DNA from: Patescibacteria group bacterium
GTDB taxonomy: Bacteria; Patescibacteriota; Patescibacteriia; Patescibacteriales; UBA12465
DNA length: 64,000 nt
Assembly: GCA_041651195.1 (NCBI GenBank)
Contig: JBAZJR010000001.1
Span: forward strand, 71,601-135,600
Direction of reading: 5' to 3'
In this document: positions 3,413 to 48,667 of the stretch, piece by piece
Numbering within the stretch: the first letter of the stretch is position 1
Layout of the letters: each line of letters begins with the position of its first letter
The notes under the pieces: model-generated
Database searches by the model: none
Seen by the model: the letters and a program-made list of their open reading frames with translations, nothing else
What the model was told of the DNA's origin: nothing
Made by a program: the position numbers and the translations under genes

Positions 3413-3433
3413 GGGCGGATAAAATTAAGGCCA

Positions 3434-3458
3434 AAAAAACCGCGTTAGGCGGTTTTTT
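3434..3458. terminator. Bidirectional rho-independent terminator between convergent rnhA and the por/pilin operon
   Basis: aaaaaaccgc / gttag / gcggtttttt forms a 10-bp stem with a 5-nt loop. An A-tract on one side and a T-tract on the other let it terminate both strands. Confidence 0.7.
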
Positions 3459-3480
3459 GTAGAGATTTTGCGCTTTAAAG

Positions 3481-5654: not shown

Positions 5655-5657
5655 AAA

Positions 5658-7957: not shown

Positions 7958-8024
7958 GGTCTTGTTCCTAAATTATCTTTAAAAGATAGCCATCGTTAAT
8001 ATTTTTTATCCCTAATAATTATCT

Positions 8025-8842: not shown

Positions 8843-8843
8843 G

Positions 8844-9602: not shown

Positions 9603-9606
9603 AAAA

Positions 9607-9635
9607 TTGAAAGATTGGTTAATTTAAACTATACT
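9607..9635 (+). promoter_or_regulatory. Sigma-70-like promoter candidate for xth
   Basis: TTGAAA (9607-9612), a 17-nt spacer, then TATACT (9630-9635), 18 nt upstream of the xth ATG. Confidence 0.45.
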
Positions 9636-9652
9636 TTATTATATCATAAGAT

Positions 9653-32563: not shown

Positions 32564-32564
32564 T

Positions 32565-32978
32565 ATGAACCGCGTCATGGTGTTTGGAACTTTTGACAAT
32601 TTACATCCTGGCCATCTGGATTATTTTCGCCAGGCCCGGCATTTTGGCGAGGAATTGATTGTCATCGTAGCGCGCGATCAGAATGTCTTAAAGATCAAGG
32701 GGCGCGCGCCGCAGGAAGGCGAGAAGTTACGGGCGAAGAATGTCCGCCAGGCGCTGCAAGAGGGCGCTTATCAGGGGCGAGCGGTCTTAGGCAGTTTAAA
32801 GAATCGTTGGTTGGTCATAAACAGATATCGTCCGGATTTTATCTGCTTAGGTTACGACCAACAAGTTGATTTAACGGAATTAAAGAGCAAAATTGCAAAA
32901 TTTCGTCTTTTTTGTAAGATCAGAAGGATGCGTCCGTATTATCCGGAGAAATATAAGTCTAGTTACTGCAAAAAATAA
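32565..32978 (+). CDS. Small cytidylyl/adenylyltransferase-family nucleotidyltransferase (RibL/TagD-like)
   Basis: 137 aa. VMVFGTFDNLHPGHLDYFRQA is the (T/H)xGH nucleotidyltransferase signature. It starts 1 nt after the paralogue 1 stop. Confidence 0.65.
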   Translation: MNRVMVFGTFDNLHPGHLDYFRQARHFGEELIVIVARDQNVLKIKGRAPQEGEKLRAKNVRQALQEGAYQGRAVLGSLKNRWLVINRYRPDFICLGYDQQVDLTELKSKIAKFRLFCKIRRMRPYYPEKYKSSYCKK

Positions 32979-32979
32979 T

Positions 32980-34410
32980 ATGGCCTGGCTTTTCTATAAA
33001 CGTGGGACGATCCATCCTTATCGGGCTTATGTGGCCTTGATGGGGATAAATAGGCGCCGCTTGCATCCGGTCGGCGTTAAGCATCCCCGGACTTTTTATA
33101 TTAATGAAGGAGAAAAATTATATTGGGCTTGGGAAGAAGATGATTTAAGAATTTTTTGGCGGCACTTGATCGCCATGCTACAAATACCGCGGCGAGTCAC
33201 GGCTTATTTTCGAGTTATAGATCGGCAGATTATTCGGGCTTTGTGGGCAACGGAGCATATTAGAAAAATGAATTTACGGCCCCTTGTTGACCAAGATTTA
33301 CTGAAGCTTTTTGCTGATTTAGAAACCGCGGTCACTCCGTCTATGTTTGCTCTGAATAGTGAGATTGATGTGGTCGACCTGTATTTAGAGGATTGGCTGA
33401 GGGCCAGGATCGAGCAGGAGTTAAAGACTGTCTCGTCGAATCAGGCTCGAATAATTTCTCAAAAATTAATCCAACCGATTAGCCGCACTTATGTTAATCG
33501 GGAAGAGATTATGATCATGCGAGCCGCTCAGCGCCACGATTTTTCAGATCAGACGCTTCGTCGTATTTATAATAAATTTTGGTGGACCAATCTCGGCTGG
33601 GAAAATGTGCGACCGCGTTCATTGGATTATTTCCGTCAGTCAATCAGGAAACAAGCGAGGATCGTTGGGGTGACAACAAAATTAGCGCAAGCGGAAAATT
33701 TCGTCCTTCTCAATCAGCGGGAACGCCGGCAGTATTTAAAATTTTTTCGGGCCTCCAGTCCGATTAAATACTGGTTATCGATCTATGACCGTTATGTCTA
33801 CTATCATGACCGCCGCAAGGAATTACAAGGGCGGATCAATTATGCGTTTTACTTGTTATTGTCAGAGGTCGCCCGTCGGCGTCGATTAAAAGTAGCTGAT
33901 TTAGAGTGGCTATGGCATTTTGAAGTAAAAAATATTTTGCAGGGCGGTAGCCTTGATCAAGCGGAAATAAGGCGCCGGAAGAAGGGCGTTGCCGCCCTTG
34001 TTTATTTCAATAAATTTACGGTTTGGAGCGGCATCGCCGCGATCCGTTTACGGAGAAAATATGTTAAAGAAGAAAAACAAAAGATTTTTGAATTTTCCGG
34101 CTTAGGCGTCAGTGGCGGACTGGTCCGCGGTCGGGTAAAAGTATGCGCTGGCGCCAAAGAGGCTTTATTGAAGATCAAGCAGGATGATATCCTGGTCTGC
34201 CCGATGACCACGCCGGAGCACGTTATCGCGATGCGCAGAGCTAAAGCGATCATCACCGACGAAGGCGGTATCACTTGTCATGCCGCGATTATCGCCAGAG
34301 AATTTGGCATTCCTTGCATCGTCGGGACAAAAACTGCGACACGAATTTTGTCTGACGGCGACTTGATAGAAGCGGACGCCAGAAATGGGCTGGTTAAATT
34401 TATAAAGTAA
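32980..34410 (+). CDS. Swivel phosphohistidine domain protein, paralogue 2 of 10
   Basis: The ATG at 32980 (MAWLFYKRG) is preferred over the track start 32893, which overlaps the previous gene. C-terminus: GLGVSGGLVRGRV...DDILVCPMTTPEHV...AKAIITDEGGITCHAAIIAREFGIPCIVGT. His codon at 34279-34281. N-terminal motifs: NKFWWTNLGWEN and YYHDRRKE. Confidence 0.85.
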   Translation: MAWLFYKRGTIHPYRAYVALMGINRRRLHPVGVKHPRTFYINEGEKLYWAWEEDDLRIFWRHLIAMLQIPRRVTAYFRVIDRQIIRALWATEHIRKMNLRPLVDQDLLKLFADLETAVTPSMFALNSEIDVVDLYLEDWLRARIEQELKTVSSNQARIISQKLIQPISRTYVNREEIMIMRAAQRHDFSDQTLRRIYNKFWWTNLGWENVRPRSLDYFRQSIRKQARIVGVTTKLAQAENFVLLNQRERRQYLKFFRASSPIKYWLSIYDRYVYYHDRRKELQGRINYAFYLLLSEVARRRRLKVADLEWLWHFEVKNILQGGSLDQAEIRRRKKGVAALVYFNKFTVWSGIAAIRLRRKYVKEEKQKIFEFSGLGVSGGLVRGRVKVCAGAKEALLKIKQDDILVCPMTTPEHVIAMRRAKAIITDEGGITCHAAIIAREFGIPCIVGTKTATRILSDGDLIEADARNGLVKFIK

Positions 34411-34414
34411 TAAT

Positions 34415-35854
34415 ATGGCTAAAAATAAACAAAAATTATCACTGGCTCGGAATCAAAAATTAGATAATCTAGAATTAGTTTACAAAACTTCGATCACGCC
34501 CTTTTTCCCAATCTGCCAGGTGGGGCGGCATTATAGTCGAAGATTTCAGAAGATTCTCGTTTTAAATAATCAGCCGCAGGAGCTAGTGGTTGCAATTACG
34601 CCGTCTGGAGTCAATTGGTTTTTTCCTAGGACTTTAAAACCGATCGCTATTAGATATGTTGATAAGCTGCTATCTGATCGGCGGATTTTGCCAGCGCTGC
34701 TGGGCCAAGAGCGGAGCTTATCACGTCAGCTTTTACGGATTATCAAGACTCCAATTCCCGTTTTGGTCAAAGACGGCCAGATAACGGCGTTAGGACGCAA
34801 GTTATTTCACGATATACTGACTCTATATTACGATTACGGCTATATTGCCGATGTGCCCGGTTTCATATTCCAGGTCTATGCTGTCGATTATTTCAAAGAG
34901 CGGATTGAGAAACAATTATATCAAGCTGGTCAGGCGGCTTTGGCTACTGATGAGAATCTAGATTTATTATTGACTTCCCCTGGTTACACTAATTATGAGA
35001 ATTTTTTGCAGGATTTAGCTGGTTTGAAAGAAAAACAAGCGGTGTCTGTCGTAACTCGTCGTTGGTCGTGGCTAATCCATGACTATATCGGCACGGTCAT
35101 TGATGAAAAATATATCATCTCTAAAATTAAGCAGTTGGGCAGAAGTCAGATTAATAAAGATTTGCGGCAAGCCGAGCAAAGGATTGCGGCGATCGGGAGG
35201 GTGAAGAGATTATTACCGGTCCGCGCGCGCCAAGAGACGGAGATAGTCCAAAAATTTCTTTGGATTTATAATGATCGGAAAAAAGAAGTCTTGAACCAGG
35301 TCAATATTTATTTGCGCCGTCTCTTTGAGGCGAAATTTCCCGGGCTCAGTTTTAGTCAACTGCGGGAGCTGTACCAGCATCGGCCCGACGACCTGGAAAA
35401 GATCTTTTCTTCTCCTCGACCTTTGTCTGTTTGGTTGAAACAGAAGAAATTTATTTATATCATCAAGAATGGGCGGGTAACGAATGGTCCGGCCTCTTAT
35501 TTTTCCCTGATTGATCGGCCGGTCTTAGCAGCCGATAAGATTTTGCGCGGGAAAACCGCTTGCGTCGGCCTGGTTAGGGGGAGAGTTAATGTCGTCTTGA
35601 ATATTTCGCAGATCACTAAGTTCGTGCCCGGCAGCATCCTGGTCGCCCCCTTTACAAATGTTAATTATCTGCCGATCATGAGCAAGGCCGGCGCTATCCT
35701 GACGGAAACCGGCGGCCTGACCTCTCACGCCGCGATTACGGCGCGAGAATTGAAAATCCCTTGCGTCGTCGGTATCCCGCATCTGTTAGCCAACCTGTAT
35801 GACGGGCAGGAGGTTGAAGTCGATGCCGGGAAAGGAACTATCAGGATTATTTAA
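34415..35854 (+). CDS. Swivel phosphohistidine domain protein, paralogue 3 of 10 (most divergent swivel)
   Basis: C-terminus: GKTACVGLVRGRV...GSILVAPFTNVNYLPIMSKAGAILTETGGLTSHAAITARELKIPCVVGI. His codon at 35726-35728. N-terminal motifs: RRWSWLIHDYIG and IYNDRKKE. Confidence 0.85.
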   Translation: MAKNKQKLSLARNQKLDNLELVYKTSITPFFPICQVGRHYSRRFQKILVLNNQPQELVVAITPSGVNWFFPRTLKPIAIRYVDKLLSDRRILPALLGQERSLSRQLLRIIKTPIPVLVKDGQITALGRKLFHDILTLYYDYGYIADVPGFIFQVYAVDYFKERIEKQLYQAGQAALATDENLDLLLTSPGYTNYENFLQDLAGLKEKQAVSVVTRRWSWLIHDYIGTVIDEKYIISKIKQLGRSQINKDLRQAEQRIAAIGRVKRLLPVRARQETEIVQKFLWIYNDRKKEVLNQVNIYLRRLFEAKFPGLSFSQLRELYQHRPDDLEKIFSSPRPLSVWLKQKKFIYIIKNGRVTNGPASYFSLIDRPVLAADKILRGKTACVGLVRGRVNVVLNISQITKFVPGSILVAPFTNVNYLPIMSKAGAILTETGGLTSHAAITARELKIPCVVGIPHLLANLYDGQEVEVDAGKGTIRII

Positions 35855-35882
35855 GACTTAATCAGGACCATTAAATAAATGT

Positions 35883-37409
35883 ATGGCCAAATATCAGTCC
35901 GGGCTGATCGCCCGGAATATCAAACTATTAAAGCAGAAAGAGTGGTATAACCAGCGGTTTGACGGCTGCTTAAACCTGATCTGGATGATCGCTGAACTGC
36001 ATATTAAGGCGGAAAAGCGGAAGCTAGCTGGCGGCAATTGCACGTCCCATCTTTGCATTTTTGATGGACAAAAGGCGGATTGGTATATGGATTTAGCCGA
36101 CATCAAGAGGATCGCCAGTGTCTTTATAAGAAGAGCGGCAATTGAGAATCATTTAGGTAAAAAATTAATGCGCCAGTGGTCGGTTGACGATAAGAAGCTG
36201 TCGGCATTCTTTGCCCGACTAGACAAGGTTGATCTGAAAAAACTAAGTAGTCAAGAATTAAGAAAATTATATTCCAGCCTGACCGACCACTATCACAAGG
36301 CCATCAGTTATTCTTCATTGATTGATGGCTTTGCCTTAGGGAGTGATGAGATAATCCAAGCAGAAATCAATAAGTTATTGGATCAGCGGGGTATCGTTAA
36401 GGGCCGTGGCGTTATCTTTTCCAATCTTACCGCCTCGGTCCATCAGTCTTTTATCAATCAAGCAGAAATCTCTTTGTTCACTATCGCGGAGCGTATTAGC
36501 AAGTTCAAGGATATGGCGTCCGCCTTAAATAATCCCGCCGTTAAGAAATTAATCGCCGCCCATGCCGCCAAATATTGTTGGATCAAGAATAATTATTTTG
36601 ATCGCCATATCTTGACGCCGGCCTATTTTATCAAAGAGCTGAGGAGTATCCTCAAAAGTTCTGTAAATTTACAGCAGGAAATCCGTCGGATAAAGGATGC
36701 GCCCTTGATTAACAAGAAGGAGAAACAAGCATTGTTGAAAAAACTAGCGCCTAGTCGCTCTTTGCGGAATCTTTTGGCAATCTCCGAAGATTTTACATAT
36801 TGGCAGGATGAGCGCAAGAAAAGGACGATGCTTTTTACCCATTATGCCCTTTGTTTCTTAGAAGAAATCGCTCGTCGTTTTCATATTCCGCCAGCTGCAG
36901 TTAAATGTTTGTCACAGGATGAGGCGCGGACTATATTAGCTGGCGGAAAGATCGACCGGGCGGAATTGACCAAACGCATCAGCCATTCATTTATTTATCA
37001 AAAAGGCGAGCATTATGAAATTTTGTCCGGGCATACGGCAGAGAACGTTGCCCAGCAGATTTTTGAACACCAAGACCAGTCGCATATCCAGGATTTCCGC
37101 GGTTTGACCGCCTCCACGGGTAGAGCGCGCGGTCTAGCCAAAATAGTGACGAGCGTCAAAGAAATTGATAAAGTTAAAGTAGGCGATATCTTGGTCGCGG
37201 TCATGACTCGGCCGGACTATATCATGGGCATTAAGAAGGCAGCCGCGATCGTGACTGATGAGGGTGGTATTACCTGTCATGCCGCTATTATTAGCCGAGA
37301 ATTAGGGATCCCCTGTATTATCGGCACCAAGATTGGCACCAAGATCTTAAAAGACGGCGACCTGATTGAGGTTAACGCCAACCACGGCTGGATTAGGAAA
37401 ATAAAATAA
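35883..37409 (+). CDS. Swivel phosphohistidine domain protein, paralogue 4 of 10
   Basis: C-terminus: GLTASTGRARGLA...GDILVAVMTRPDYIMGIKKAAAIVTDEGGITCHAAIISRELGIPCIIGT. His codon at 37278-37280. N-terminal motifs: QKEWYNQ, AKYCWIKNNYFD and YWQDERKK. Confidence 0.85.
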   Translation: MAKYQSGLIARNIKLLKQKEWYNQRFDGCLNLIWMIAELHIKAEKRKLAGGNCTSHLCIFDGQKADWYMDLADIKRIASVFIRRAAIENHLGKKLMRQWSVDDKKLSAFFARLDKVDLKKLSSQELRKLYSSLTDHYHKAISYSSLIDGFALGSDEIIQAEINKLLDQRGIVKGRGVIFSNLTASVHQSFINQAEISLFTIAERISKFKDMASALNNPAVKKLIAAHAAKYCWIKNNYFDRHILTPAYFIKELRSILKSSVNLQQEIRRIKDAPLINKKEKQALLKKLAPSRSLRNLLAISEDFTYWQDERKKRTMLFTHYALCFLEEIARRFHIPPAAVKCLSQDEARTILAGGKIDRAELTKRISHSFIYQKGEHYEILSGHTAENVAQQIFEHQDQSHIQDFRGLTASTGRARGLAKIVTSVKEIDKVKVGDILVAVMTRPDYIMGIKKAAAIVTDEGGITCHAAIISRELGIPCIIGTKIGTKILKDGDLIEVNANHGWIRKIK

Positions 37410-37434
37410 ATTTTGGCGGTATATCTTTGTTTAT

Positions 37435-38892
37435 ATGTTTAAATCAGTAAAAAATAGGTATAGATTATTAGTTGATCCTGATCAGGATCTTTGTCGCTGG
37501 AAAGTCGATGCCTATCCCGCCTTACTTTATGCGGCCTGTCGAGATATGTACAAATCTCCTTATGGTTGGCCAAAATCGGAAGGATTCTTTTTCGGACATG
37601 ATTTTTATTGGTATGATAATTGGTCAGATATTTGGAGGAATGGCAACAGATATATTAAGAAATATCTGCAGGATTCTCGTGGTGAGTTGCCAGCCAGCTA
37701 TATGCGCAAGCATGTTGCCGCTTTTGTGTCGCTATCCCATCAGATCAAAGATACAGCCAAGATGTCTTTTAATAAATTAAAGATAAATGATCTGCGTCGC
37801 GAGTGGTTTAAATTTTTTAAAATATATTCTCATTTTTGGTTAGTTGTGACCGATATAGAGGTTCTGAGTTACGCGGCCAGTCATCGTCTAAGTCAGTTGT
37901 TAGAAAAAAGCAAAATATCCATCAGCCCGAATGAAGTATCTATCCTTAACGCCTTACCACAGCGATCTTATATCTTAGAAGAGGAGTATAAATTATTAAA
38001 AATTGCTATTCTTAAGAAAAAAGGAGAACGCGAAAAGCGGCTGCGGCAGCACGCCAAAAATTTTTCTTGGATTTTAAACGGCTATCACGGCGTTCGCCTC
38101 GCCGATGAGACATATTTCCGCCGCCGTCTGCAGGAGTTTATAAGACGTGGCGATTCTCAGAAACGTTTTAATGAATTAAAAAATTATTGCAGTAATACCA
38201 GCAGGAGCTTTAAGGATCTGGTCAAGAAATACGGGCTGGACGCAGAAATTATTAAATATGCTAAGTTATCACAGCGATCTTCTTTAATCCAGGATCGGCG
38301 GAAAGCTTTATCGTGGCAAGCTACCGAACAGATAATAAGAATGTATAAGGCTTTAGCGGCGCTATTAGGCATTAGCCTGGAACAATCTTTATATATTTTG
38401 TGGGATGAATTTGATAAAGCCTATCAGGAGCGCGCCAGTTTATTACCGGAGATTACTCGCCGTCAGCATTCTTGTCGCTTACGCATCCGGTCTAATCGCA
38501 CGACCATTTCTACTGCTGATGCCAAGAAGATATTTTCTATTTTTGAGAAAGAGTACTCCCAAGACAAAGGAGGCGCGGTCAATGGGATCGTTGCTTATGC
38601 TGGTAAAGTCACTGGTCGGGTACGAATTATTCGTAATGGTCGACAGATAAATAATTTTCCGGCTGGCTACATCTTGGTTGCATTGATGACATCTCCGGAT
38701 TATATTATTGCGATTAAGAAAGCGAAAGCCCTAGTTACTGATGACGGAGGATTGACTTGCCATGCTGCTATCGTCGCCCGTGAATTAAAGAAACCTTGTA
38801 TTGTCGGAACAAGGAATGCCACTAGAGCGTTAAAGAATGGCGATTTAGTAGAGGTTGACGCGCATCGCGGTTTGGTTAGGAAATTAAGATAA
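37435..38892 (+). CDS. Swivel phosphohistidine domain protein, paralogue 5 of 10 (AT-rich gene)
   Basis: C-terminus: GIVAYAGKVTGRV...GYILVALMTSPDYIIAIKKAKALVTDDGGLTCHAAIVARELKKPCIVGT. His codon at 38761-38763. N-terminal motifs: KNFSWILNGYHG and LIQDRRKA. Confidence 0.85.
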   Translation: MFKSVKNRYRLLVDPDQDLCRWKVDAYPALLYAACRDMYKSPYGWPKSEGFFFGHDFYWYDNWSDIWRNGNRYIKKYLQDSRGELPASYMRKHVAAFVSLSHQIKDTAKMSFNKLKINDLRREWFKFFKIYSHFWLVVTDIEVLSYAASHRLSQLLEKSKISISPNEVSILNALPQRSYILEEEYKLLKIAILKKKGEREKRLRQHAKNFSWILNGYHGVRLADETYFRRRLQEFIRRGDSQKRFNELKNYCSNTSRSFKDLVKKYGLDAEIIKYAKLSQRSSLIQDRRKALSWQATEQIIRMYKALAALLGISLEQSLYILWDEFDKAYQERASLLPEITRRQHSCRLRIRSNRTTISTADAKKIFSIFEKEYSQDKGGAVNGIVAYAGKVTGRVRIIRNGRQINNFPAGYILVALMTSPDYIIAIKKAKALVTDDGGLTCHAAIVARELKKPCIVGTRNATRALKNGDLVEVDAHRGLVRKLR

Positions 38893-38895
38893 TTT

Positions 38896-39567
38896 ATGAG
38901 GACAAACGAGAAGTCTAAAAAAATAGTCTCGCCCAAAACTTTGTATGTTTGGGATCTGGCCGATACCTTATTTAATGATGTCTGGAATAAAGAACGGACT
39001 GGCTTTACTACTTATGCCGATTGGCTGCAGCATAGATTAAACAAGAAGCTCAGTCAGATCAGTGCCTGGGAATACGAAAATAATTATAAGATCCCTTATT
39101 GCGCCGGCTGGTATTTTAATCTGGACATCAAACCGGGCTTTCGGCAGACTTTATCCTGGACTAAGAATAATGAAACTTTCAGTACCGGCAACCAGGCGCA
39201 GATGACCTGGCGCGGCCGATATCTGGATAAGAAATATCATTTTAAATTAAAAAAATATTTTAAGAAATTAAACTCCACTTTTGACTACGGCGACACCAAC
39301 GTGAAAAGCCTGGCGATGTTTGAGGCTTATTTGAAAGGGAAATATAAGGAGGGGTATCGAGCGGTAGTTTATAGCGATAATCAGTTAGGCAATCTTAAAT
39401 TTTTTAAAGCAGCGGTCGACAAATGCCGAAAGATTTTGCCGGATTTAGGACTCCGCCTATACCACGTTTTGAATAATCAGCAGGGAATTAAGGACAAAAA
39501 ATGGTATTTTAGCGTCGGCACCTTATTCGATCTCTTGAAAAATGAAAAAAAAATTAAAAAATATTAA
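38896..39567 (+). CDS. Hypothetical protein, possible divergent HAD-like fold
   Basis: 223 aa. The N-terminal LYVWDLADTLFND resembles HAD motif I but reads D-x-A-D-T. FSTGN is a possible motif II and VVYSDN a possible motif IV. This is a weak, motif-only call. Confidence 0.35.
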   Translation: MRTNEKSKKIVSPKTLYVWDLADTLFNDVWNKERTGFTTYADWLQHRLNKKLSQISAWEYENNYKIPYCAGWYFNLDIKPGFRQTLSWTKNNETFSTGNQAQMTWRGRYLDKKYHFKLKKYFKKLNSTFDYGDTNVKSLAMFEAYLKGKYKEGYRAVVYSDNQLGNLKFFKAAVDKCRKILPDLGLRLYHVLNNQQGIKDKKWYFSVGTLFDLLKNEKKIKKY

Positions 39568-39578
39568 ATCATAAATCT

Positions 39579-41075
39579 ATGTCAGCTGTTGCACATTTCG
39601 GGAAATGGCGGATCAAACCGTCCGGCCAGCTTCCCATCTTCCTCCGTTTCATGATTAACTCTTCCTTCACGGCCGCGACCGCCAAGGCCGCTAAGATCAA
39701 GACGGTCCTCAAGAATCGGACCTATCTCAATCACATGATGTATTGGAAAGCCACGGAGTACAATAAATTTGAGGCGGAAATCATCAACCATCTGAAGAAA
39801 AATGATGGTTGGTTTGAATCTTATTGCCAGAGAGAAATGCGGAAGGCGGAAAAGTTATACCAGAAAGGATCGAAATTCAAGCGGACTGATTGGGCGGCTA
39901 AGAGCGACGAGGAAATCAAGGCCGTCCTGAAAGATCTCTTGGAAGAATATCGCTATATCACTAGTCCCTGGTATGCCCAGTATGCTCTTGATGAATATTT
40001 TGAGCATACGATTGAAGAACAATTGGAAAAATATATCTCTCCGACCGACCCTTTGCTCCGGCACTATGTGCTCATATTCACTGATCCGCAGGCCGCGACG
40101 GAAGTCAGCCAGGAAAGATATGGCCTAACCCTATTGTTACAGAGATTTATTGTCCGGAAAGAAAATCTAGACAAGTTATCCGCAAAAGCGAAAGAAGAGA
40201 TCAATAAACATCTAGATAAATATGCCTATATCAATCGGGGCTTAGCGACCAGTAAGCCATATAGCTTCCAGGATATCATTAATCGCTTGAAGGAGATGAA
40301 GAAACTGATCAAAGATGGCCAGACCGTCAGGAGTATGATTTATAATGCCTCGGCCCAGAAGATCAAAGATGATTATCAAAAAGTCTTGAAACGGGTCAAG
40401 CCGGATAAGAAATTTAAAGAGATAATCATTAAGGCGCGGCGGCACTCCTATATGCGCAATCGGCGCGTCGAAGCTTTCTTCAAGGCTGATTACGGCGCCA
40501 GTTTCATGTATGCGGAGATTGCCCGGCGCAGCCATTTTAATCCCGATTGGATCATGGAAATCACGACCGAGGAAATGTTTGGCGCTCTGAGCGGCAAGAA
40601 ATTGCCAAACATATCGGAGATGAAAAGAAGGTTTGCGAATTACGCGATGGTCGTTCGGAATTCTCAGACCAAGCTGATTTCCGATCCGCGGGAAATAAAG
40701 AAAATGGAAAAACAGTATTTCGTCGATGCGGTGCCGGTGGAAGAAATAATGGGACGCGTCGCCTGTTTGGGGGGCATCATCAAAGGAAAAGCTAAGATTT
40801 GTCTGGATAAGAAAGAAATCAGCAAGGTTAAAAAGGGCGATATCCTGGTTGCCCAGTTTACGACGCCGGATTTCGTGCCGGCCATGGAAAAGGCGGCCGC
40901 GATCATTGCTGACCAGGGCGGCGTTTCCTCACACGCGGCGATCGTTTCTCGGGAATTAGGCGTCCCCTGTGTCATTGATACCAAGAACGCTACGCGGATC
41001 ATTAAAGATAATGATCTCGTGGAAGTTAATGCGAAGACCGGTTTGATTAAAGTCTTGAAAAGATATGGGAAGTAA
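39579..41075 (+). CDS. Swivel phosphohistidine domain protein, paralogue 6 of 10
   Basis: C-terminus: GRVACLGGIIKGKA...GDILVAQFTTPDFVPAMEKAAAIIADQGGVSSHAAIVSRELGVPCVIDT. His codon at 40932-40934. N-terminal motif: DKYAYINRGLAT. Confidence 0.85.
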   Translation: MSAVAHFGKWRIKPSGQLPIFLRFMINSSFTAATAKAAKIKTVLKNRTYLNHMMYWKATEYNKFEAEIINHLKKNDGWFESYCQREMRKAEKLYQKGSKFKRTDWAAKSDEEIKAVLKDLLEEYRYITSPWYAQYALDEYFEHTIEEQLEKYISPTDPLLRHYVLIFTDPQAATEVSQERYGLTLLLQRFIVRKENLDKLSAKAKEEINKHLDKYAYINRGLATSKPYSFQDIINRLKEMKKLIKDGQTVRSMIYNASAQKIKDDYQKVLKRVKPDKKFKEIIIKARRHSYMRNRRVEAFFKADYGASFMYAEIARRSHFNPDWIMEITTEEMFGALSGKKLPNISEMKRRFANYAMVVRNSQTKLISDPREIKKMEKQYFVDAVPVEEIMGRVACLGGIIKGKAKICLDKKEISKVKKGDILVAQFTTPDFVPAMEKAAAIIADQGGVSSHAAIVSRELGVPCVIDTKNATRIIKDNDLVEVNAKTGLIKVLKRYGK

Positions 41076-41676
41076 TAGGATTAAAGCCATTTTTTTCGAT
41101 GTCGCCGACGTACTGGCGGTAGAAAGTTTCACTTTAGGCATCCGGCAGTATGAATACCTGCACCATATCCCCTCCGGCCAACTATACGCCGCTATCCATG
41201 ACCATAGTTATTGGAAAGATTTTTCTTTCGGCCGGATCAGCGAGTCAGAATATCTCCGATCGGTCCAAGCTAATTTTTCCGAGACCCTAGACTTGGCGGA
41301 GTTGAAAGAACTGATTTTGTCTGGGCTGGTCCCAAATAATGAATTGATTGAATTTTTACGTCCCCTGGCCGCTCGTTATACGCTCGGCATAATTTCCAAT
41401 AATCCTCGCGAGTGGTTCGATTATTTCTATGATCAGAATGGATTGAAAGAAATTTTTTCGGTTAAGGCCGTGTCCGGCTATCTGGGCGTGCGGAAACCGG
41501 ACCGGGCCATATTTTCTCGAGCCGTACAGATGGCCGAAGTAACTCCAGCGGAATCAATTTATGTCGATGATCGCGAAGAGATGACGGCGGAAGCCGCCCA
41601 GCTTGGTATTCGGATTATAATTTACAAAGGCTTAGAAGATTTTAAGTTAAATTTTAAAAGATTTAATATAATTTAA
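41065..41676 (+). CDS. HAD-superfamily (subfamily IA-like) hydrolase/phosphatase with atypical motif I
   Basis: Motif I is AIFFDVADVLAVE (D-x-A-D-V in place of D-x-D-x-T/V). Motif II is GIISNN, motif III is GVRKPDRAIF and motif IV is IYVDDRE. It overlaps the end of paralogue 6 by 11 nt. Confidence 0.65.
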   Translation: MGSNRIKAIFFDVADVLAVESFTLGIRQYEYLHHIPSGQLYAAIHDHSYWKDFSFGRISESEYLRSVQANFSETLDLAELKELILSGLVPNNELIEFLRPLAARYTLGIISNNPREWFDYFYDQNGLKEIFSVKAVSGYLGVRKPDRAIFSRAVQMAEVTPAESIYVDDREEMTAEAAQLGIRIIIYKGLEDFKLNFKRFNII

Positions 41677-41681
41677 AAAGT

Positions 41682-42719
41682 ATGATGTCAGAAAAAAATC
41701 ACAATTTATTTCCAGAAAAGAAGAGAGAGAAAGAGATCCCAGCCGTCAGGTACCGAGTTATCCGTCACGAAGAAAGGACCAATACTGGCGAATTAACCGC
41801 GGACGGGATCAAGAATGCCCAACGACAAGGCCAGAGTTTGAAGACTACAGCCGAAGTAGTTAAAGGATATGCCAGTCAGGAAAAGAGTGATCGTGCTTAT
41901 AAGACTGTGGACACGATCAGCGGAGCGTCAGGCATCAAGTCTCCGTTGACCGAAAAAGCTTATGAGACCCGCCGTCGCCCTGGTTTGTTTTATGATCTAG
42001 CCGGCCCATTAATGCCGCGGATAGACGGTTATTCTAAGTTGATTAATGAAGCGGTCAAGAAGGATTATCCTGATTTTGATCCTCAGTCCAGCGATCCGAA
42101 ATGGGGCAAGATTCGAAAAGAATATCAGCCGATTGGGGTTAAGAAACTGATTGTCGATGATCAAGAGCTGTCCCATATCTTTGCTATGGGCGCGGCGCAT
42201 GAATTGGCTGATATGATGAAAATCGGTGAGCGCTATGCCGGTTATCGAGATAGTAAAGCCCAGGCCGGGGAGGGGAAAGGTGTAGAGAGGGATATAGTCA
42301 TGATGGAAGGTACGCACGGCGGATTCTTGGAGAACCTGTTAAAGAAGGCTTTGGTCAGGGTTGATGGTCAAGGGCAGGAGAAGGTCGGGTTTGATACTTT
42401 TACTGATGTTAAAGGCAACCCAGAATTAGAACCAGCTCTTGGCGGGATGTTCAAACCGGGAGAGTCTTTCGATATCGTCGAAAAAATCGGTCAGGAAAAA
42501 TCGTCCCGTTTGCCCGTAGAGTTCGAAGACCCCTCTCGTTTTTCTGGTGAGAAATGTTTTTTGGATCTAGATCGGGTCAAGGCTTTGGACGGGCAGTTTA
42601 GCACCTATTACGAAAAATTCCAAGCTTGGCAGAAAGATAAGGGCCAGGAGGCTGAGCTATTAACTTGTTTAGAAGGATTGCAGGCCGATTTTGCCAAGCA
42701 ATATGAAGGAAGTAAGTAA
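41682..42719 (+). CDS. Histidine-phosphatase (phosphoglycerate-mutase-like) superfamily protein
   Basis: RYRVIRHEERTNTGELTADGIKNAQRQG is an RHG-type motif with the nucleophile His. SDRAYKTVDTI provides the second Arg. MMEGTHGGFLENLL provides the distal His. The family-level call rests on motifs. Confidence 0.6.
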   Translation: MMSEKNHNLFPEKKREKEIPAVRYRVIRHEERTNTGELTADGIKNAQRQGQSLKTTAEVVKGYASQEKSDRAYKTVDTISGASGIKSPLTEKAYETRRRPGLFYDLAGPLMPRIDGYSKLINEAVKKDYPDFDPQSSDPKWGKIRKEYQPIGVKKLIVDDQELSHIFAMGAAHELADMMKIGERYAGYRDSKAQAGEGKGVERDIVMMEGTHGGFLENLLKKALVRVDGQGQEKVGFDTFTDVKGNPELEPALGGMFKPGESFDIVEKIGQEKSSRLPVEFEDPSRFSGEKCFLDLDRVKALDGQFSTYYEKFQAWQKDKGQEAELLTCLEGLQADFAKQYEGSK

Positions 42720-42770
42720 AGCTGCGGATCGTCGAACGATTTTTCGTAGAGCCGCTAGATTAAATAAAAT

Positions 42771-44219
42771 ATGACAGAAATCCAGCAAGATAAATTCTTT
42801 CGCCGGCAGTTTAAGAAGTCATGGCTGACCCAAGGCTTGAATGGCGTCCCCTTGTATCTGAGCACGACGGCGGAGAGCGGCCACCGGTTGAAAAAATACC
42901 TTGGTTTCGATTACGCCCCCTTTCTGTTCTATTATAAAGATAATTATGCCGAGGGCAGTTATGCGGCTGCCGATTTTGTGAAGCTGTGGAAAATAGTTCG
43001 CTCCCGGATCAAGCGCGATAAAGGATACTTAGAGAAAATTCGAGCCAAGTATGATAAGGTGTTTGCCCGTTACGATTTTTGGCTAAAACAGATCAAGAAC
43101 ACTAAATTAGCAGACCAGTCAGACGCCTGGCTGAAAGAAAATCTACAGCAGTCCGGAAACTGTCTAGTCGACGCCATGAATCTTTCGCATGTTATTGAGG
43201 TGATTAGCGCTGGTTTGGAGTCGGACTTGAAAGCGCGGCTGACGGCCAGGTATCAGGAGTTAAAGATCAATAAGATTTTGGCCTCTTTATCTAATGTTTA
43301 TAAGCCATCTTTTATTAATCTGGAAGAAAAAGATCTCCTAAGGATAAAATCCGCTCCGCTCCGCTCCCGGCCGGCTCTCCTGGCCCGGCACAGCAAAAAA
43401 TATTATTGGTTTAATACTAATTATACCGGCTCTAAGTTGGCCGACGAGCAATACTTTCTGAAGCGCCTTAAGAATTTAACCGAGACCTCAACTCCCGTCG
43501 TAGCTGACCCCGCCGATTTTATCAAGCTGGCGGAAGATCAGGCGATCAAGGGAATGATCAAGATGATCGGCCTGACCGCCGACTGGCAGGATCAACGGAA
43601 AGTTAATATCTTCAAAGCTATTTATCACGCGGAGATCTTAGTTAAGGAGTTCAGCCGTCGGACTGGGATGCCTATGGCGGATCTACGTTATGTAGCCGTT
43701 AAAGAGATGCTCGGTTTTACCAAAATTAAAAATTTTAAAAAATTATCAAGAGAATTGGCGGCCAGACGGCAGGGCTGTTTCCAGTGGATGGCTGTCGGCC
43801 GGGAAATAATCGTTGCAGGAGCTTTATTCAGACGATTAGAAAAAAACTATCATTCCATCCGGACGCGAGTTGATTCAGTTCCTCTGTCTATAGAAGGGAC
43901 GACTGCCAATAGCGGCCGGGTGGTCGGCACGGTTGTGGTCTGTAAATCGATAAAAGATTTAACTAAGGTCAGAAAGGGAGATATCTTAGTAACCTCTATG
44001 ACCCGACCAGAATATCTGGCTGGCATCAAGAAGGCCGCCGCTTTGATTACGGATGAAGGCGGCATCACTTGTCATGCCGCTATCGTCTCTCGGGAGTTGC
44101 GCCTGCCCTGTATCATCGGGACTAAGATCGCGACCAAGGCGTTACAGACCGGCGACTTCGTGGAAGTAAACGCCAATCACGGCGTAGTCAAACTCTTAAA
44201 GAATAGTAAGCAAGCTTAG
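42771..44219 (+). CDS. Swivel phosphohistidine domain protein, paralogue 7 of 10
   Basis: C-terminus: GTTANSGRVVGTV...GDILVTSMTRPEYLAGIKKAAALITDEGGITCHAAIVSRELRLPCIIGT. His codon at 44073-44075. N-terminal motifs: KKSWLTQGLNGVPLYLSTTAE, KKYYWFNTNYTG and DWQDQRKV. Confidence 0.85.
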   Translation: MTEIQQDKFFRRQFKKSWLTQGLNGVPLYLSTTAESGHRLKKYLGFDYAPFLFYYKDNYAEGSYAAADFVKLWKIVRSRIKRDKGYLEKIRAKYDKVFARYDFWLKQIKNTKLADQSDAWLKENLQQSGNCLVDAMNLSHVIEVISAGLESDLKARLTARYQELKINKILASLSNVYKPSFINLEEKDLLRIKSAPLRSRPALLARHSKKYYWFNTNYTGSKLADEQYFLKRLKNLTETSTPVVADPADFIKLAEDQAIKGMIKMIGLTADWQDQRKVNIFKAIYHAEILVKEFSRRTGMPMADLRYVAVKEMLGFTKIKNFKKLSRELAARRQGCFQWMAVGREIIVAGALFRRLEKNYHSIRTRVDSVPLSIEGTTANSGRVVGTVVVCKSIKDLTKVRKGDILVTSMTRPEYLAGIKKAAALITDEGGITCHAAIVSRELRLPCIIGTKIATKALQTGDFVEVNANHGVVKLLKNSKQA

Positions 44220-44231
44220 GCTCGATCCAAT

Positions 44232-45665
44232 ATGACTAACAACGATTACCAACTATTTAAACAATATCTAAAGCGCGATTGGTACGTCCAAGGCTTCAGC
44301 GCCGTTCCTCTATTTTTGTCGACCGCCGCTATCAGCGGCACCTTCATGAAAAAATATCTCGGTTTTGGTTACCGGCACTTCTTGTTCAGTTACCATAACG
44401 GTTATGGCGAGATGGCTTATGATCCGGCTGACCTTAAGCATGTCTGGCTGATCGTCAAGAAAAAATTATCGGTCAATCCTGGTTATTTAAAAGAAGTGAA
44501 GGCTCTATATTATCAGAATTTGCGCCGTTTTCAGCCATTTTTACAGAAAGTCCAACATGCTGACCTGACTAGATTAAACGATCGGGAAATAATTAAGTTG
44601 TTTAAAGAATTAATCCGCGCTCAAGTAGATTATGTCGGAGTAGCGCATATTATTGATGCGATTGGCGCCGAATTAGAAAAAGAATTCCAAGACGCTCTCC
44701 ATAAAGAATTGCCGTTGCTTTCTCCGGCTAAGTTCAATGAAGTCTTCGCTCGGCTGATCACCCCATCCAAGATGTCTTTTGTCAGTCAAGAAGAGAAGGA
44801 GCTCTCAGCTATCCCGAGAGGCATTAAGAACGCAGCGGCTCTCCGCCGCCACGCTGCCAAATATTTTTGGCTGCAGAATAGTTATGCTGGTCCGAAGTCA
44901 TTGACTGTTGCTGACTTTCGAGCCAAACTTATTAATTTAAAAAAGGAAAAACAGAGATTTCGAATTGATCAGTGCCAAACTCTACCATATAGATTCAGCC
45001 GCTCCTTGCGGCAGATGGTCGGAATCATCGATTATTGCGCGGTCTGGCAGGACGAAAGAAAAGCGCTCTTATTTCGGAATATCGCTTACGCTGGCCGCGT
45101 GGTCGAGGAAATTGCTCGGCGTTTAGATTCTGACGTGACGGATTTCTATTATATCAGCCTGACTGAAGTCGAACGGCTAGAATCAATCCAGGATTTGCAG
45201 TCCAAGATAAAGACGTTAAAAGAGCGCCGTAGCGGCTGCTTGGTCATCATCCAAGGGAAAACCGATAAGGTGCTAGCCGGCGTCGGTTATCGCCGCTTGA
45301 TGAAAGCCGGCCATAGCCTATTGAAAGATAAGGGGCAAGAAGGCCGAGATATCCATGGCACCGTGGCTAATGTCGGTACGGCGCGCGGCCGCGTCCGTAT
45401 CATCAGGAACATGGAATCCTTGAAAAAATTCCAAAGCGGGGATGTCCTGATCGCTTCTATGACCCGGCCGGAGTATATGGCGGCAATCAAGAAGGCGGCC
45501 GCGATCATTACGGACGAAGGCGGCCTAACTTGTCACGCGGCGATCATCGCTCGGGAACTTGATATCCCGACTATTATCGGCACGAAGATAGCCACCCGGG
45601 TCTTGAAAGACGGTGATTTGGTAGAGGTCCGGGCTAACCATGGGATCGTTAGGATTTTAAATTAG
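44232..45665 (+). CDS. Swivel phosphohistidine domain protein, paralogue 8 of 10 (closest to paralogue 7)
   Basis: C-terminus: GTVANVGTARGRV...GDVLIASMTRPEYMAAIKKAAAIITDEGGLTCHAAIIARELDIPTIIGT. His codon at 45534-45536. N-terminal motifs: KRDWYVQGFSAVPLFLSTAAI, AKYFWLQNSYAG and VWQDERKA. Confidence 0.85.
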   Translation: MTNNDYQLFKQYLKRDWYVQGFSAVPLFLSTAAISGTFMKKYLGFGYRHFLFSYHNGYGEMAYDPADLKHVWLIVKKKLSVNPGYLKEVKALYYQNLRRFQPFLQKVQHADLTRLNDREIIKLFKELIRAQVDYVGVAHIIDAIGAELEKEFQDALHKELPLLSPAKFNEVFARLITPSKMSFVSQEEKELSAIPRGIKNAAALRRHAAKYFWLQNSYAGPKSLTVADFRAKLINLKKEKQRFRIDQCQTLPYRFSRSLRQMVGIIDYCAVWQDERKALLFRNIAYAGRVVEEIARRLDSDVTDFYYISLTEVERLESIQDLQSKIKTLKERRSGCLVIIQGKTDKVLAGVGYRRLMKAGHSLLKDKGQEGRDIHGTVANVGTARGRVRIIRNMESLKKFQSGDVLIASMTRPEYMAAIKKAAAIITDEGGLTCHAAIIARELDIPTIIGTKIATRVLKDGDLVEVRANHGIVRILN

Positions 45666-45675
45666 TATCTTATAT

Positions 45676-47121
45676 ATGCCAGGTAAATTTAATCCCATCA
45701 TCTCGCCATCCGCCAAATTTTCTTTCGCCGACTGTTTAAAGAGCCTGCGGACTGAAAAGGAGTGGATTATTCAAGAGGCACCAGCGGCGCCTTGGTATTG
45801 GTGGCTCTCTTCCACAGCCTGGATCCAAGGCTTGGCTCAAGCCGGTTATTCGCCGGGAAATTTTGCTACTTACTGTGTCGGCGAAGTCGGCACTTTAGTC
45901 GTTAATCGTATAATTTTTTTAAGATTAGCCAAAAAATTAATAAAAAAAGAATTGGCTGGCCAGTCGGTTATAAGAAGATGGTTAGCGGAGTGGCAGGCGA
46001 TCGATAAACGATATAATATCCTGGTCAGCCGGATCCTTAATACGAAATTAGATGGTTTACCAGAGAAAAAATTTTTACAACTTTTTGAAAATTTTTGTGC
46101 CCTTTATTTTGCCGTCGAATCTTTACCGCTCGCTAATGAGTTCCTTATCCCTTACTCCGACGAATTATTGGGACGCCTGCATGTCCAATATCCGGACCAG
46201 ACCGAAACTCTGGCTCGTCTCATTGCGCCGTGCCAAAGATCTTTTATCCAGATCGAAGAAGACGAATTAAAACAGATCGCCCGGCTTGCCGGTCAGAAAA
46301 GGGAAGAAGCCCTGACCCGGCATTTAAAAAAATGGCTTTTTATCAATGGCGGTTACGACGGCCCCCATTCCGTGACCAGATGGCAATTGCAAACTAAGTT
46401 AAAAAAGATAAAAAATCATCAAGCAGCCAAGCCGACCAAGATCGGTTCGGTATCTTTCTTGGATCAAGAAACTAAGATCATATTGCGGCTGATCAGCCTA
46501 GTCTCCGGCTGGAAAGATCAAAGGAAGAGGAATAATATGATCGGCTCGGTCGTTTTGGATCATTTTGCTAGGAGTTTTTCCTCTCGTTACCAGATTGATT
46601 ATGATTTAATTCGATATGCCGTCCCGGGAGAATATCGCTTATTAGCCAAAGCTGATAAAAAGTTCTTAAAGATCCTGAGACAGAGGATCAAGGGCGGTAC
46701 GGCCTGGGCGATCAGCGGGAAGCGATATTCCGGTATATTTTCTGAGATTGAATATCGCCAGTTGAGAAGAGTAATCGGTGCCATGAAGAAGCCGCAGACA
46801 ATGCTAAAAGGGTTGGCCGCCAGCCCGGGGCGGGTCCGTGGCTGGATCAGGGTTATCCATAATCCGGCGCGGGAAAAATTTGCGGCTGGTAGTATCCTTT
46901 TGACTTCGATGACCCGGCCAGAATTTGTCCCCTTGATCAAGAAAGCTAAAGCCGTCCTCTGCGATGAAGGCGGGTTATTATCCCACGCGGCCATCGTCAG
47001 CCGCGAATTCAAAATCCCTTGCATCGTCGGCCTACACCAGGCCATGGCCAGTCTGCGAGACGGAGATTGGGTGGAAGTGGACGCTAATCATGGCCTGGTT
47101 AAGATTTTAAAACATAATTGA
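45676..47121 (+). CDS. Swivel phosphohistidine domain protein, paralogue 9 of 10
   Basis: C-terminus: GLAASPGRVRGWI...GSILLTSMTRPEFVPLIKKAKAVLCDEGGLLSHAAIVSREFKIPCIVGL. His codon at 46984-46986. N-terminal motifs: EKEWIIQ, KKWLFINGGYDG and GWKDQRKR. Confidence 0.85.
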   Translation: MPGKFNPIISPSAKFSFADCLKSLRTEKEWIIQEAPAAPWYWWLSSTAWIQGLAQAGYSPGNFATYCVGEVGTLVVNRIIFLRLAKKLIKKELAGQSVIRRWLAEWQAIDKRYNILVSRILNTKLDGLPEKKFLQLFENFCALYFAVESLPLANEFLIPYSDELLGRLHVQYPDQTETLARLIAPCQRSFIQIEEDELKQIARLAGQKREEALTRHLKKWLFINGGYDGPHSVTRWQLQTKLKKIKNHQAAKPTKIGSVSFLDQETKIILRLISLVSGWKDQRKRNNMIGSVVLDHFARSFSSRYQIDYDLIRYAVPGEYRLLAKADKKFLKILRQRIKGGTAWAISGKRYSGIFSEIEYRQLRRVIGAMKKPQTMLKGLAASPGRVRGWIRVIHNPAREKFAAGSILLTSMTRPEFVPLIKKAKAVLCDEGGLLSHAAIVSREFKIPCIVGLHQAMASLRDGDWVEVDANHGLVKILKHN

Positions 47122-47128
47122 TAATATT

Positions 47129-48667
47129 ATGGCTTCTCTAATAACTCTAAGCTCTATCAAATCGCAGAAATGGTACCGCCAACAGACGGAAGCTACGCCT
47201 TATTTCATCTATCTGGCTTGTCGCGGCTGCGTCGCTTATTTTAAAAGTCAGGATAAGGTCCTCTGGTATTGCGATCCAGAAGAAGATCGGGCTTATTTGG
47301 AACAGAATTATATTCGGGCTTTAGCCGAGAAACATTTGGCTCAGGAAAAAAATCACTTAAATTTTTCTCAGCGCCTTCATGCGGAGTGGCTTAATAACAT
47401 ACAATTAAAAAATCAGCGCTTATTTTCTAAAATAAATCAGGTTGATGTTAGTCGGATTAGCGATGCCAAGCTTCTCAGTTTTAATCATTCCTTGGGACGG
47501 CAGTCATATGTCATGTGGCTTCGTTTCTTTATGGATATTTTTGATATTGATGCCGAGAGCCTGATTGAACAGGAGCTCATCAAAAAGCAGGTAAACCTGA
47601 CGGCTGATGAAAAGAATACCTTAACTATGCCCGAGAAACTGATGGTCAATCAAGATCAGGAATTGGCACTGCTCAAGATCGCCCGGTTTGTAAAAATTGA
47701 CGCTCAGTGTATCCATTTATTAAATCAGATCCAGACAGCAGACACGATTCATCGTTTGAGATTACAGCCGCGGTTATTATCGGAAATTGAGTCTTATATT
47801 AAAAAATACCATTGGATCAGGAATAGTTGGGCCCACACTTCTATCATTAGCGTGTTTGATGTCGTCGACCAAGTGAAGCAGATCGTTTCTGGGTCACGAG
47901 ATATTGTGAGCGAAATTAGGCAGCTGGAATCTTATGGGAAGAATTTGCGGAAGCAAAAAAAGGTAATCATTAAAAAACATCGTTTAGCCGGCTGGCTAGC
48001 TCGGATGTTCGAGATGTTCGCCTTAATGACTCTCTGGCGCGATGAGCGCAAAGCGCAGATGCAGCAATTGAATTACTATCTCCAGCTGGTCGGCACGGAA
48101 ATAGCCAAGCGCAGCCGACTAGATTGGGATAGCATTAAGGTTTATGATCCCTTAAGCGTCAAGACTATCCCTATAAAAGCTCAAGATTTAGTTCGTCGCG
48201 CCAAGTTATTAAAAAATAATAAATTAATGTATTGGGACGGACAGGCTGTCCGTCACCTTGATTTCCAAACCAGTAAAAGATTCGTGCCTGCCCTGGAAGA
48301 CACCTTTTCCGTCCAGATGACAGAAGTCCGCGGACTGATCGCCTGTCCGGGTAAGGTCAAGGGGGAAGTGGTTGTAATTAATAAGAAAAGTGAATTCAGT
48401 AAGATGATGCCGGGTAAGATTCTGGTGACGACCATGACCCGGCCGGACTACTTGCCTTTAATGAAACAGGCGGCCGCTGTCGTGACCGATGAAGGCGGGA
48501 TCACCTCGCATGCCGCGATCGTTTCCCGGGAACTAAAGATCCCCTGCATCATCGGCACCCAGGTCGCCACTAAAGTTTTAAAAGATGGTTACCAGGTAGA
48601 AGTTAATGCTAACCATGGAGTCGTTTTAGTCTTAGAAAGGGCGAATAAAAGCTATAATAAAAATTAG
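47129..48667 (+). CDS. Swivel phosphohistidine domain protein, paralogue 10 of 10
   Basis: C-terminus: GLIACPGKVKGEV...GKILVTTMTRPDYLPLMKQAAAVVTDEGGITSHAAIVSRELKIPCIIGT. His codon at 48509-48511. N-terminal motifs: SQKWYRQ, KKYHWIRNSWAH and LWRDERKA. Confidence 0.85.
   Translation: MASLITLSSIKSQKWYRQQTEATPYFIYLACRGCVAYFKSQDKVLWYCDPEEDRAYLEQNYIRALAEKHLAQEKNHLNFSQRLHAEWLNNIQLKNQRLFSKINQVDVSRISDAKLLSFNHSLGRQSYVMWLRFFMDIFDIDAESLIEQELIKKQVNLTADEKNTLTMPEKLMVNQDQELALLKIARFVKIDAQCIHLLNQIQTADTIHRLRLQPRLLSEIESYIKKYHWIRNSWAHTSIISVFDVVDQVKQIVSGSRDIVSEIRQLESYGKNLRKQKKVIIKKHRLAGWLARMFEMFALMTLWRDERKAQMQQLNYYLQLVGTEIAKRSRLDWDSIKVYDPLSVKTIPIKAQDLVRRAKLLKNNKLMYWDGQAVRHLDFQTSKRFVPALEDTFSVQMTEVRGLIACPGKVKGEVVVINKKSEFSKMMPGKILVTTMTRPDYLPLMKQAAAVVTDEGGITSHAAIVSRELKIPCIIGTQVATKVLKDGYQVEVNANHGVVLVLERANKSYNKN

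Follow-up and report, generated by a model that had tools for sequence, protein, structure and literature searches.

What do phosphatases do inside an array of phosphate-carrying modules? The question is raised by a 64,000-nucleotide (nt) stretch of DNA from a Patescibacteria group bacterium (GenBank assembly GCA_041651195.1, contig JBAZJR010000001.1, positions 71,601 to 135,600 of the forward strand; hereafter the window), in which three genes with phosphatase folds are embedded among ten swivel-phosphohistidine paralogues. Two of them, HADa and HADb, are HAD proteins missing the Asp two residues after the nucleophile (Asp+2), which is the general acid/base of canonical HAD phosphatases. The third, HP, is a histidine phosphatase. 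A preliminary description of the locus read the loss of Asp+2, speculatively, as the mark of phospho-acceptors or relays for His~P carriers, and proposed as an alternative that the proteins act on phosphorylated products. Judged by sequence, models, and gene order, it is the alternative that we favor, with moderate confidence: HADa, HADb, and HP are probably small-molecule phosphohydrolases, each hard-wired to one module of a split multi-module dikinase resembling rifampin phosphotransferase. The three genes are:

38896..39567, plus strand: HADa (223 amino acids (aa)), member of an unannotated C1-capped HAD-fold family, between swivel paralogues 5 and 6
41065..41676, plus strand: HADb (203 aa), HAD-IA variant 3, YihX-like, between paralogues 6 and 7
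41682..42719, plus strand: HP (345 aa), divergent protein of the histidine-phosphatase superfamily, between paralogues 6 and 7

Junctions are tight, with a 3-nt gap between paralogue 5 and HADa, an 11-nt overlap between paralogue 6 and HADb, and a 5-nt gap between HADb and HP. The preliminary description had called all three open reading frames phosphatase-fold genes, and these calls stand, on family models for HADb and on AlphaFold2 (AF2) models for HADa and HP. HADb passes PF00702 (47.2 bits vs a cut-off of 26.4) and PF13419 in Pfam (E 5e-12), as well as the NCBIfam model TIGR01509 for HAD-IA variant 3 (36.4 bits vs a cut-off of 29.4). Its motifs are F-D12-V-A14-D-V (I), S111-N112 (II), K144 (III), and D168-D169 (IV), and the cap motif H45-D46-x-x-Y-W-K-D-F is conserved. 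HADb is also weakly similar to pyrimidine 5'-nucleotidase models.

HADa has no match above cut-off in Pfam or NCBIfam, with PF00702 and PF10307 present below threshold in 1 and 2, respectively, of 15 family members. Early HADa and HP profiles had no meaningful match in PDB, and both assignments came from the folds and later, for HP, from a widened profile. As assessed by AF2 with 15 homologues as input (pLDDT 87.5), residues 11-223 of HADa match 2om6_A best (VIA Z 12.2, root mean square deviation (rmsd) 3.7 Å, 179 aligned residues) and all 50 structures among the matches listed are HADs. Motif I is followed by a helical insertion, the C1 cap, and D20 directly follows the strand formed by residues 14-19. 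The motifs of HADa are W-D20-L-A22-D-T24 (I), S96 (II), K137 (III), and D161-N162 (IV); in the family they read W-D-x-[A/G]-x-T, F-[S/T]-[S/T]-G, T-N-x-K, and Y-x-D-[D/N], in an order that fits the predicted strands. When the HADa and HADb profiles were compared using hhalign, motif I alone aligned, at 5% probability. The structural cluster of the ESM-Atlas nearest to the HADa model is the phage HAD_SAK_1 ("Swiss Army Knife" RNA-repair HAD) group (TM 0.55/0.66), which, together with the sub-threshold PF10307 matches, is a weak hint of kinship to polynucleotide-end phosphatases.

For HP there is no Pfam match above cut-off either. PF00300 reaches 13.9 bits vs a cut-off of 21.7, and is seen below threshold in 7 of 14 family members. 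The AF2 model (pLDDT 90.1) matches 4fdu_A best (VIA Z 13.9, rmsd 4.5 Å, 259 aligned residues), and all 50 structures among the matches listed are histidine phosphatases. A profile widened with distant array-linked neighbors reaches PDB entry 3eoz (E 2e-4) and the SixA-like chain 4hbz (E 4e-3), and in both matches R28-H29 (the RH motif) and R71 (of R-A-x-x-T) are aligned. Conserved residues include R28-H29-x-x-R32, R71, an R97/R99 cluster, H212-G213, and E217; all 14 family members have R28, H29, R71, and H212. The second His, H212, is followed by Gly instead of Asp, with the conserved Glu at +5 (E217), and the protein carries a large helical insert (residues 104-194) plus a C-terminal extension. 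The invariant R97 and R99 suggest that the ligand may be (poly-)anionic. The nearest language-model neighbors of HP are His_Phos_1 clusters, in which the commonest taxa are Minisyncoccota, Magasanikiibacteriota, and Moraniibacteriota (Patescibacteria/CPR).

The fold of HP is similar (Z 12-14) to both branches of the superfamily, i.e. branch 1 (PF00300: dPGM, PhoE, SixA, RosC) and branch 2 (acid phosphatases, phytases, MINPP). With branch 1 it shares the R-H nucleophile motif, the arginine of R-A-x-x-T, and a second His followed by Gly, whereas its R-H-x-x-R spacing and large helical insert are reminiscent of branch 2, although there is no His-Asp dipeptide. The proton donor is an Asp behind the second His in branch 2, and a Glu in the loop that follows strand 3 in branch 1. 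HP differs from both in falling under the Pfam cut-off, being cytosolic, and being confined to Patescibacteria arrays. SixA-type proteins are compact (∼160 aa) and have no lid insertion, unlike HP with its inserted helices, and the weak 4hbz match is the sole sequence link between them. HADa is a new unannotated HAD family and HP a new, very divergent histidine-phosphatase family, which adds two unannotated families to these superfamilies.

How unusual is motif I of the two HADs? It reads W-D-L-A-D-T-L in HADa and F-D-V-A-D-V-L in HADb. The nucleophile Asp is invariant in both families (47/47 and 33/33 members, respectively). At +2, the HADa family (n = 47 with motif I) has 36 Ala, 7 Gly, 2 Thr, 1 Cys, and 1 Ser, never Asp, and the HADb family (n = 33) has 14 Gly, 13 Ala, 3 Phe, 1 Ser, 1 Thr, and 1 Asp. 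The catalyst reported missing by the preliminary description is therefore indeed missing, and no normal DxDxT motif is found elsewhere in the N terminus of either protein. The D-x-A-D motif it proposed can be read in both window proteins, but the Asp after the Ala is kept in only 14/47 HADa and 12/33 HADb relatives. The +3 position is Gly in 16, Asp in 14, Asn in 12, and Gln in 3 HADa members (two others differ), and Asp in 12, Gly in 10, Asn in 9, and Arg in 2 HADb members, while Thr occupies +4 in 46/47 HADa members. In these alignments, what the families conserve is D-x-[A/G]-x-[T/V] and not D-x-A-D.

This variability (D/G/N/R/Q) also rules out D23 of HADa and D15 of HADb as the true nucleophile or a displaced acid, D20 and D12 being the invariant residues: an Asp restricted to the closest relatives cannot be a shifted catalyst. 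Dehalogenases have a metal-free active site and no motif IV acidic pair, and an L-2-haloacid dehalogenase reading was rejected as this pair is retained in HADa (D-[D/N]) and HADb (D-D). A phosphonatase reading was also rejected. PhnX has the motif I D-x-A-x-T, with Ala at +2 as in our HADs, and the preliminary description had drawn this parallel, but the likeness amounts to one residue and is superficial: PhnX needs a Schiff-base lysine in its cap, and neither family alignment contains an invariant cap Lys.

The loss of Asp+2 is not peculiar to swivel arrays. When HADb is aligned to the product of E. coli K-12 yihX, D-L-G-N-V falls on D-V-A-D-V, and motifs II-IV and the cap histidine (H45 in HADb) are in register. 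YihX (HAD4), an α-D-glucose-1-phosphate phosphatase of HAD-IA variant 3 with a C1 cap like that of HADb, hydrolyzes glucose 1-phosphate specifically, at an apparent kcat of ∼10 s-1 (PMC4251788). The two are only 21% identical, HADb scores 34.7 bits vs a cut-off of 295 for the equivalog model (NF006991), and HADb differs by its own conserved cap motif and its wiring to a swivel module. Motif I of another relative in PDB, 3cnh, is D-I-G-G-V, and human LHPP has Ser at +2 (PMC11277029). LHPP, which acts on P-N and anhydride bonds, is a eukaryotic protein of the NagD-type C2-cap clade, and is likened to our HADs at the superfamily level only.

We searched 401 genomes spread over the phylum with a HADb profile, which matched 82 of them at E <= 1e-25. 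Within 1.5 kb of the best 29 loci (the window's own excluded) there is no swivel domain, paralogue-6 domain, or HP-like gene. These stand-alone relatives have Gly (16), Asn (5), Asp (5), His (2), or Ser (1) at +2, i.e. 24/29 are without Asp, which rules out Asp+2 loss as an array-specific trait. Judging from these alignments, it characterizes this HAD-IA subgroup in general, whether or not an array is present, and is common enough to be, alone, no sign of a non-hydrolytic role. Because YihX, LHPP, and the stand-alone relatives share it, we regard it as a subfamily trait and not as an adaptation to His~P carriers. The array-linked HADb clade does have a mark of its own in the conserved sequence H-D-x-x-Y-W-K-D-F-[S/T]-x-G of the cap, which points to one conserved ligand.

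If motif I does not tie these proteins to the array, gene order does. The array and its relevant components are:

31040..48667, plus strand: swivel-phosphohistidine array of ten paralogues (476-512 aa), with a C-terminal PF00391 domain in every paralogue tested; hosts HADa, HADb, and HP
37435..38892, plus strand: swivel paralogue 5, directly upstream of HADa
39579..41075, plus strand: swivel paralogue 6, which evolves more slowly than any other module and whose place upstream of HADb and HP is conserved
42771..44219, plus strand: swivel paralogue 7, downstream of HP
49777..50718, plus strand: single stand-alone PPDK_N ATP-grasp subunit (PF01326, E 1.7e-97)

Modules of the window were compared by BLAST with those of six other loci (L001, L010, L011, L013, L014, and L015), and a maximum-likelihood tree (quick search, SH-aLRT support) was computed for the 27 modules of the window, L001, L010, and L011. 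Paralogue 6 belongs to an orthogroup with 60-64% identity within it, vs 27-35% between other modules, and its clade in the tree has 100% support and end branches of 0.13-0.29, vs a median of 1.1. In 9/9 contexts read, paralogue 6 orthologues are followed by HADb and/or a histidine phosphatase, often with overlapping start and stop codons:

Window: paralogue 6 at 39579-41075, then HADb and HP
44-kb metagenome contig: paralogue 6, then HADb and HP downstream
118-kb metagenome contig: paralogue 6, then HADb and HP downstream
L010: paralogue 6 at 6517-8004, then HADb and a distant HP-like gene
L011: paralogue 6 at 6517-8004, then HADb and a distant HP-like gene
L013: paralogue 6 at 2984-4477, then one extra module, HADb, and a 309-aa gene with a faint His_Phos_1 match
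L014: paralogue 6 at 4508-6004, then HADb and a 187-aa His_Phos_1 gene on the opposite strand
L001: paralogue 6 at 8485-10017, then HP directly (overlapping), without HADb
L048 (genome G175): paralogue 6 at 1477-3009, then HP directly (overlapping), without HADb

The HP-like genes adjoining HADb in L010 (8602-9642) and L014 (6723-7283, minus strand) have Ser or Thr in place of H212, and their products may be inactive or work differently. In the 401-genome sample, a paralogue-6 orthologue (E <= 1e-80) and a full-length HP are each confined to the same two genomes, G000 and G175, the latter of which also has HADa 5 kb upstream. High conservation between distant Patescibacteria, yet presence in 2/401 genomes, suggests one fixed substrate and a patchy, possibly horizontal spread of paralogue 6.

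HADa belongs to another module. Paralogue 5 groups weakly (83% SH-aLRT) with the module preceding the HADa homologue in L010. HADa is rare, with 37 clusters among 1.84 billion representatives, and is found in 2/151 genomes of the order, one copy being a pseudogene. Every HADa relative whose context was read sits in a swivel array (window, 44-kb contig, L001, L010, L015, and L046). In L046 (6001-8064), the protein P0068 consists of a complete swivel module fused to a C-terminal HADa via a linker of ∼4 residues, and in P0085 HADa runs into the N-terminal part of the following module; each fusion comes from a single contig and could be an assembly frameshift. At another locus in the same order (L009, G006:C14:79643-82948), a HADa remnant with TAG and TAA stops lies beside short swivel-module-like fragments, in what looks like a decaying array.

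Three array-rich genomes of the same taxonomic family, G154 (25 PF00391 matches), G157 (11), and G140 (5), contain none of the three genes as assessed with these queries, which rules them out as general parts of swivel arrays. HADa, HADb, and HP are therefore accessories of one array lineage and not core machinery, and paralogue 6, HADb, and HP form one fixed, conserved cassette. With one module, one HAD, and one histidine phosphatase expected to share a ligand, this cassette is the most tractable biochemical entry to the system.

From the folds, motifs, family statistics, synteny, co-occurrence, and one fusion described above, we infer that the three enzymes would be hydrolases with small-molecule substrates, probably the products of their modules. 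In brief, the stand-alone ATP-grasp subunit would load the swivel histidine of a module, the loaded module would phosphorylate its small-molecule substrate, and the translationally coupled phosphatase (Mg-dependent for HADa and HADb, with a histidine nucleophile for HP) would remove the phosphate from the product or a downstream derivative. In this scheme the phosphate might be a temporary handle or an activating group, as it is in the pathway of the HpeHI kinase and HpeD. The catalytic motifs are intact in HADa, in HADb (I-IV vs YihX), and in HP (R-H, R71, H212). In the HAD superfamily, a C1 cap goes with small-molecule rather than protein substrates; both HADs are C1-capped, and protein substrates are therefore disfavored.

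The missing Asp+2 suggests that either the substrate has a leaving group that departs readily (as in aryl, enol, acyl, anomeric, or P-N phosphates) or the cap provides the acid; for the latter, the alignments offer H45/D46 in HADb and E59/E61 in HADa as conserved candidates. There is a parallel in the histidine phosphatase Agp: once its general acid is removed, activity on glucose 1-phosphate falls ∼1000-fold, yet a substrate whose leaving group has a low pKa is turned over as well as before or better (PMC8938923). The phosphates that known dikinases of this kind produce, enol and aryl phosphates, have good leaving groups, and by analogy they would suit partner phosphatases that have no canonical general acid.

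The closest described system is the Rhodococcus Hpe pathway, in which a phenolic substrate receives a phosphate from the two-component dikinase HpeHI, only this phosphorylated form is accepted by a carboxylase, and HpeD then removes the phosphate (PMC9618137, PMC12167813). As in the window, the genes of a split rifampin-phosphotransferase-type kinase (ATP-grasp and swivel/substrate subunits) are accompanied by one for a phosphatase of the HAD family; related kinases include CreHI and PpsAB. However, HpeD is NagD-like (C2 cap) and not HAD-IA, and Hpe has one kinase module vs ten in the window, which in addition has a second, histidine-type phosphatase, no identified intervening pathway enzyme, and a 1-Mb Patescibacteria host. 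Operons of a dikinase and a HAD phosphatase, and HADs without Asp+2, are thus already known, and what is new, besides the HADa and HP families, is the paralogue 6-HADb-HP cassette in a previously undescribed one-to-many dikinase array.

Several points weigh against phosphohydrolases of this kind. The link from module product to phosphatase substrate is drawn from gene order only. A kinase and a phosphatase for one compound would form a futile cycle unless a step intervenes, and no enzyme for such a step was identified in the window. The tight HADa-swivel fusion of P0068 would equally suit direct action on His~P. Moreover, glucose 1-phosphate, the substrate of YihX, has a poor leaving group, and absence of Asp+2 alone is therefore no predictor of substrate class; YihX perhaps handles it with help from the cap, and a literature search for a structural paper on its acid catalyst found nothing usable.

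Could the phosphatases act on the swivel domains themselves? One or more of the three, most plausibly HP, might hydrolyze the swivel phosphohistidine and so discharge modules loaded in the absence of substrate, as SixA does with NPr and HPt domains. HP does belong to the superfamily that contains SixA, as the 4hbz match recalls, and is the most constant partner of paralogue 6; LHPP, for its part, shows that a HAD with Ser at +2 can cleave P-N bonds (PMC11277029), and HADa is once fused directly behind a swivel domain (P0068). We nevertheless consider such a resetting role rather unlikely. The size of HP, its ∼90-residue helical insert and its C-terminal extension set it apart from compact SixA, its best structural matches are small-molecule enzymes (MINPP, phytases, acid phosphatases), and both HADs are capped. 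An enzyme that resets modules should also serve all ten of them, yet the three phosphatases are tied to single orthogroups and are missing from G154, G157, and G140. Quite improbable, in our view, is the relay of the preliminary description, in which the HADs would take phosphate from swivel His~P onto Asp, where it would persist as a stable acyl-phosphate until handed to a further acceptor; His-to-Asp transfer would then exist outside two-component systems. In P-type ATPases, loss of the +2 acid/base does slow dephosphorylation, and this residue is missing from the whole HADa family and 32/33 HADb relatives; the genes are also tightly coupled to swivel modules, with one fusion. But the same motif is found in the hydrolase YihX and in 24/29 stand-alone relatives away from swivel genes (and the same loss in LHPP), C1 caps speak against protein substrates, other arrays of the same taxonomic family do without the genes, and no acceptor for a second transfer is evident. 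A narrower version, in which the swivel phosphohistidine of the partner module donates its phosphoryl group directly to HADa, and perhaps in the same way to HADb, either to reset the module or for transfer to a second acceptor, is compatible with the ∼4-residue linker of the module-HADa fusion, and we think it similarly improbable. If true, it would be a His-to-Asp phosphotransfer in which a dikinase swivel domain and a HAD domain take the places of histidine kinase and receiver.

Two further explanations keep the enzymes on small molecules. Methyl-cycle and salvage genes flank the arrays repeatedly (PfkB, AhcY, and MetK in the window and the 44-kb contig, PRTase and PNP in L001, UMPH-1 and methyltransferases in L014 and the 118-kb contig), and the resemblance of HADb to pyrimidine 5'-nucleotidases would suit a role in nucleoside or cofactor salvage with PfkB, AhcY, MetK, and the cytidylyltransferase-like gene, the operon being merely shared. 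That seems unlikely to us, as HADa, HP, and the array-linked HADb clade are seen only in arrays, and they keep their place beside the same orthogroup of modules where salvage genes are different or absent (L010, L011, and L013). Alternatively, HP could be a dPGM-like mutase or phosphotransferase that moves the phosphate added by paralogue 6 to another position or acceptor before HADb hydrolyzes the product. The conserved order of paralogue 6, HADb, and HP would agree with this, as would the lack of a canonical proton donor recognizable beside H212 (Gly, not Asp, being next) and the poly-anionic ligand suggested by R97 and R99. Since HP occurs without HADb in L001 and G175, we rate this scheme as very improbable. 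Hydrolysis of module products by dedicated phosphatases remains the reading we prefer.

The genome from which the window derives is 1.03 Mb in size and 96% complete. The array is part of a co-directional block comprising a PfkB kinase, AhcY, MetK, a small cytidylyltransferase-like gene, the ten swivel paralogues, and one PPDK_N ATP-grasp gene, whose product is presumed to load the swivel histidines. In paralogue 6, the last 100-170 residues, swivel domain included, match the C terminus of rifampin phosphotransferase and PEP synthases; for the N-terminal, substrate-binding part, homology to rifampin phosphotransferase is assumed from the HpeH model (PMC12167813) and not from window data. There are 13 PF00391 matches in this genome vs 1 in most relatives of the same taxonomic family, and the distribution of arrays within the family is patchy, with four genomes having 5-25. 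For some Patescibacteria genomes of 1 Mb, few investments in genes are larger than their multi-module split dikinase arrays.

Two other genes of the block score far under the equivalog cut-offs of their best models. For the PfkB kinase (26569-27570), these are nucleoside-kinase and ribose-1-phosphate-kinase models, and for the 137-aa nucleotidyltransferase (32565-32978), heptose-1-phosphate adenylyltransferase (RfaE domain II) and glycerol-3-phosphate cytidylyltransferase models. Within 14407-55431, the whole block is flanked by type IV secretion genes: upstream lies a gene for a giant surface protein, and downstream lie PrgI, TraC-like, and VirB4-like genes. The same placement between type IV secretion genes is seen on the 44-kb and 118-kb metagenome contigs.

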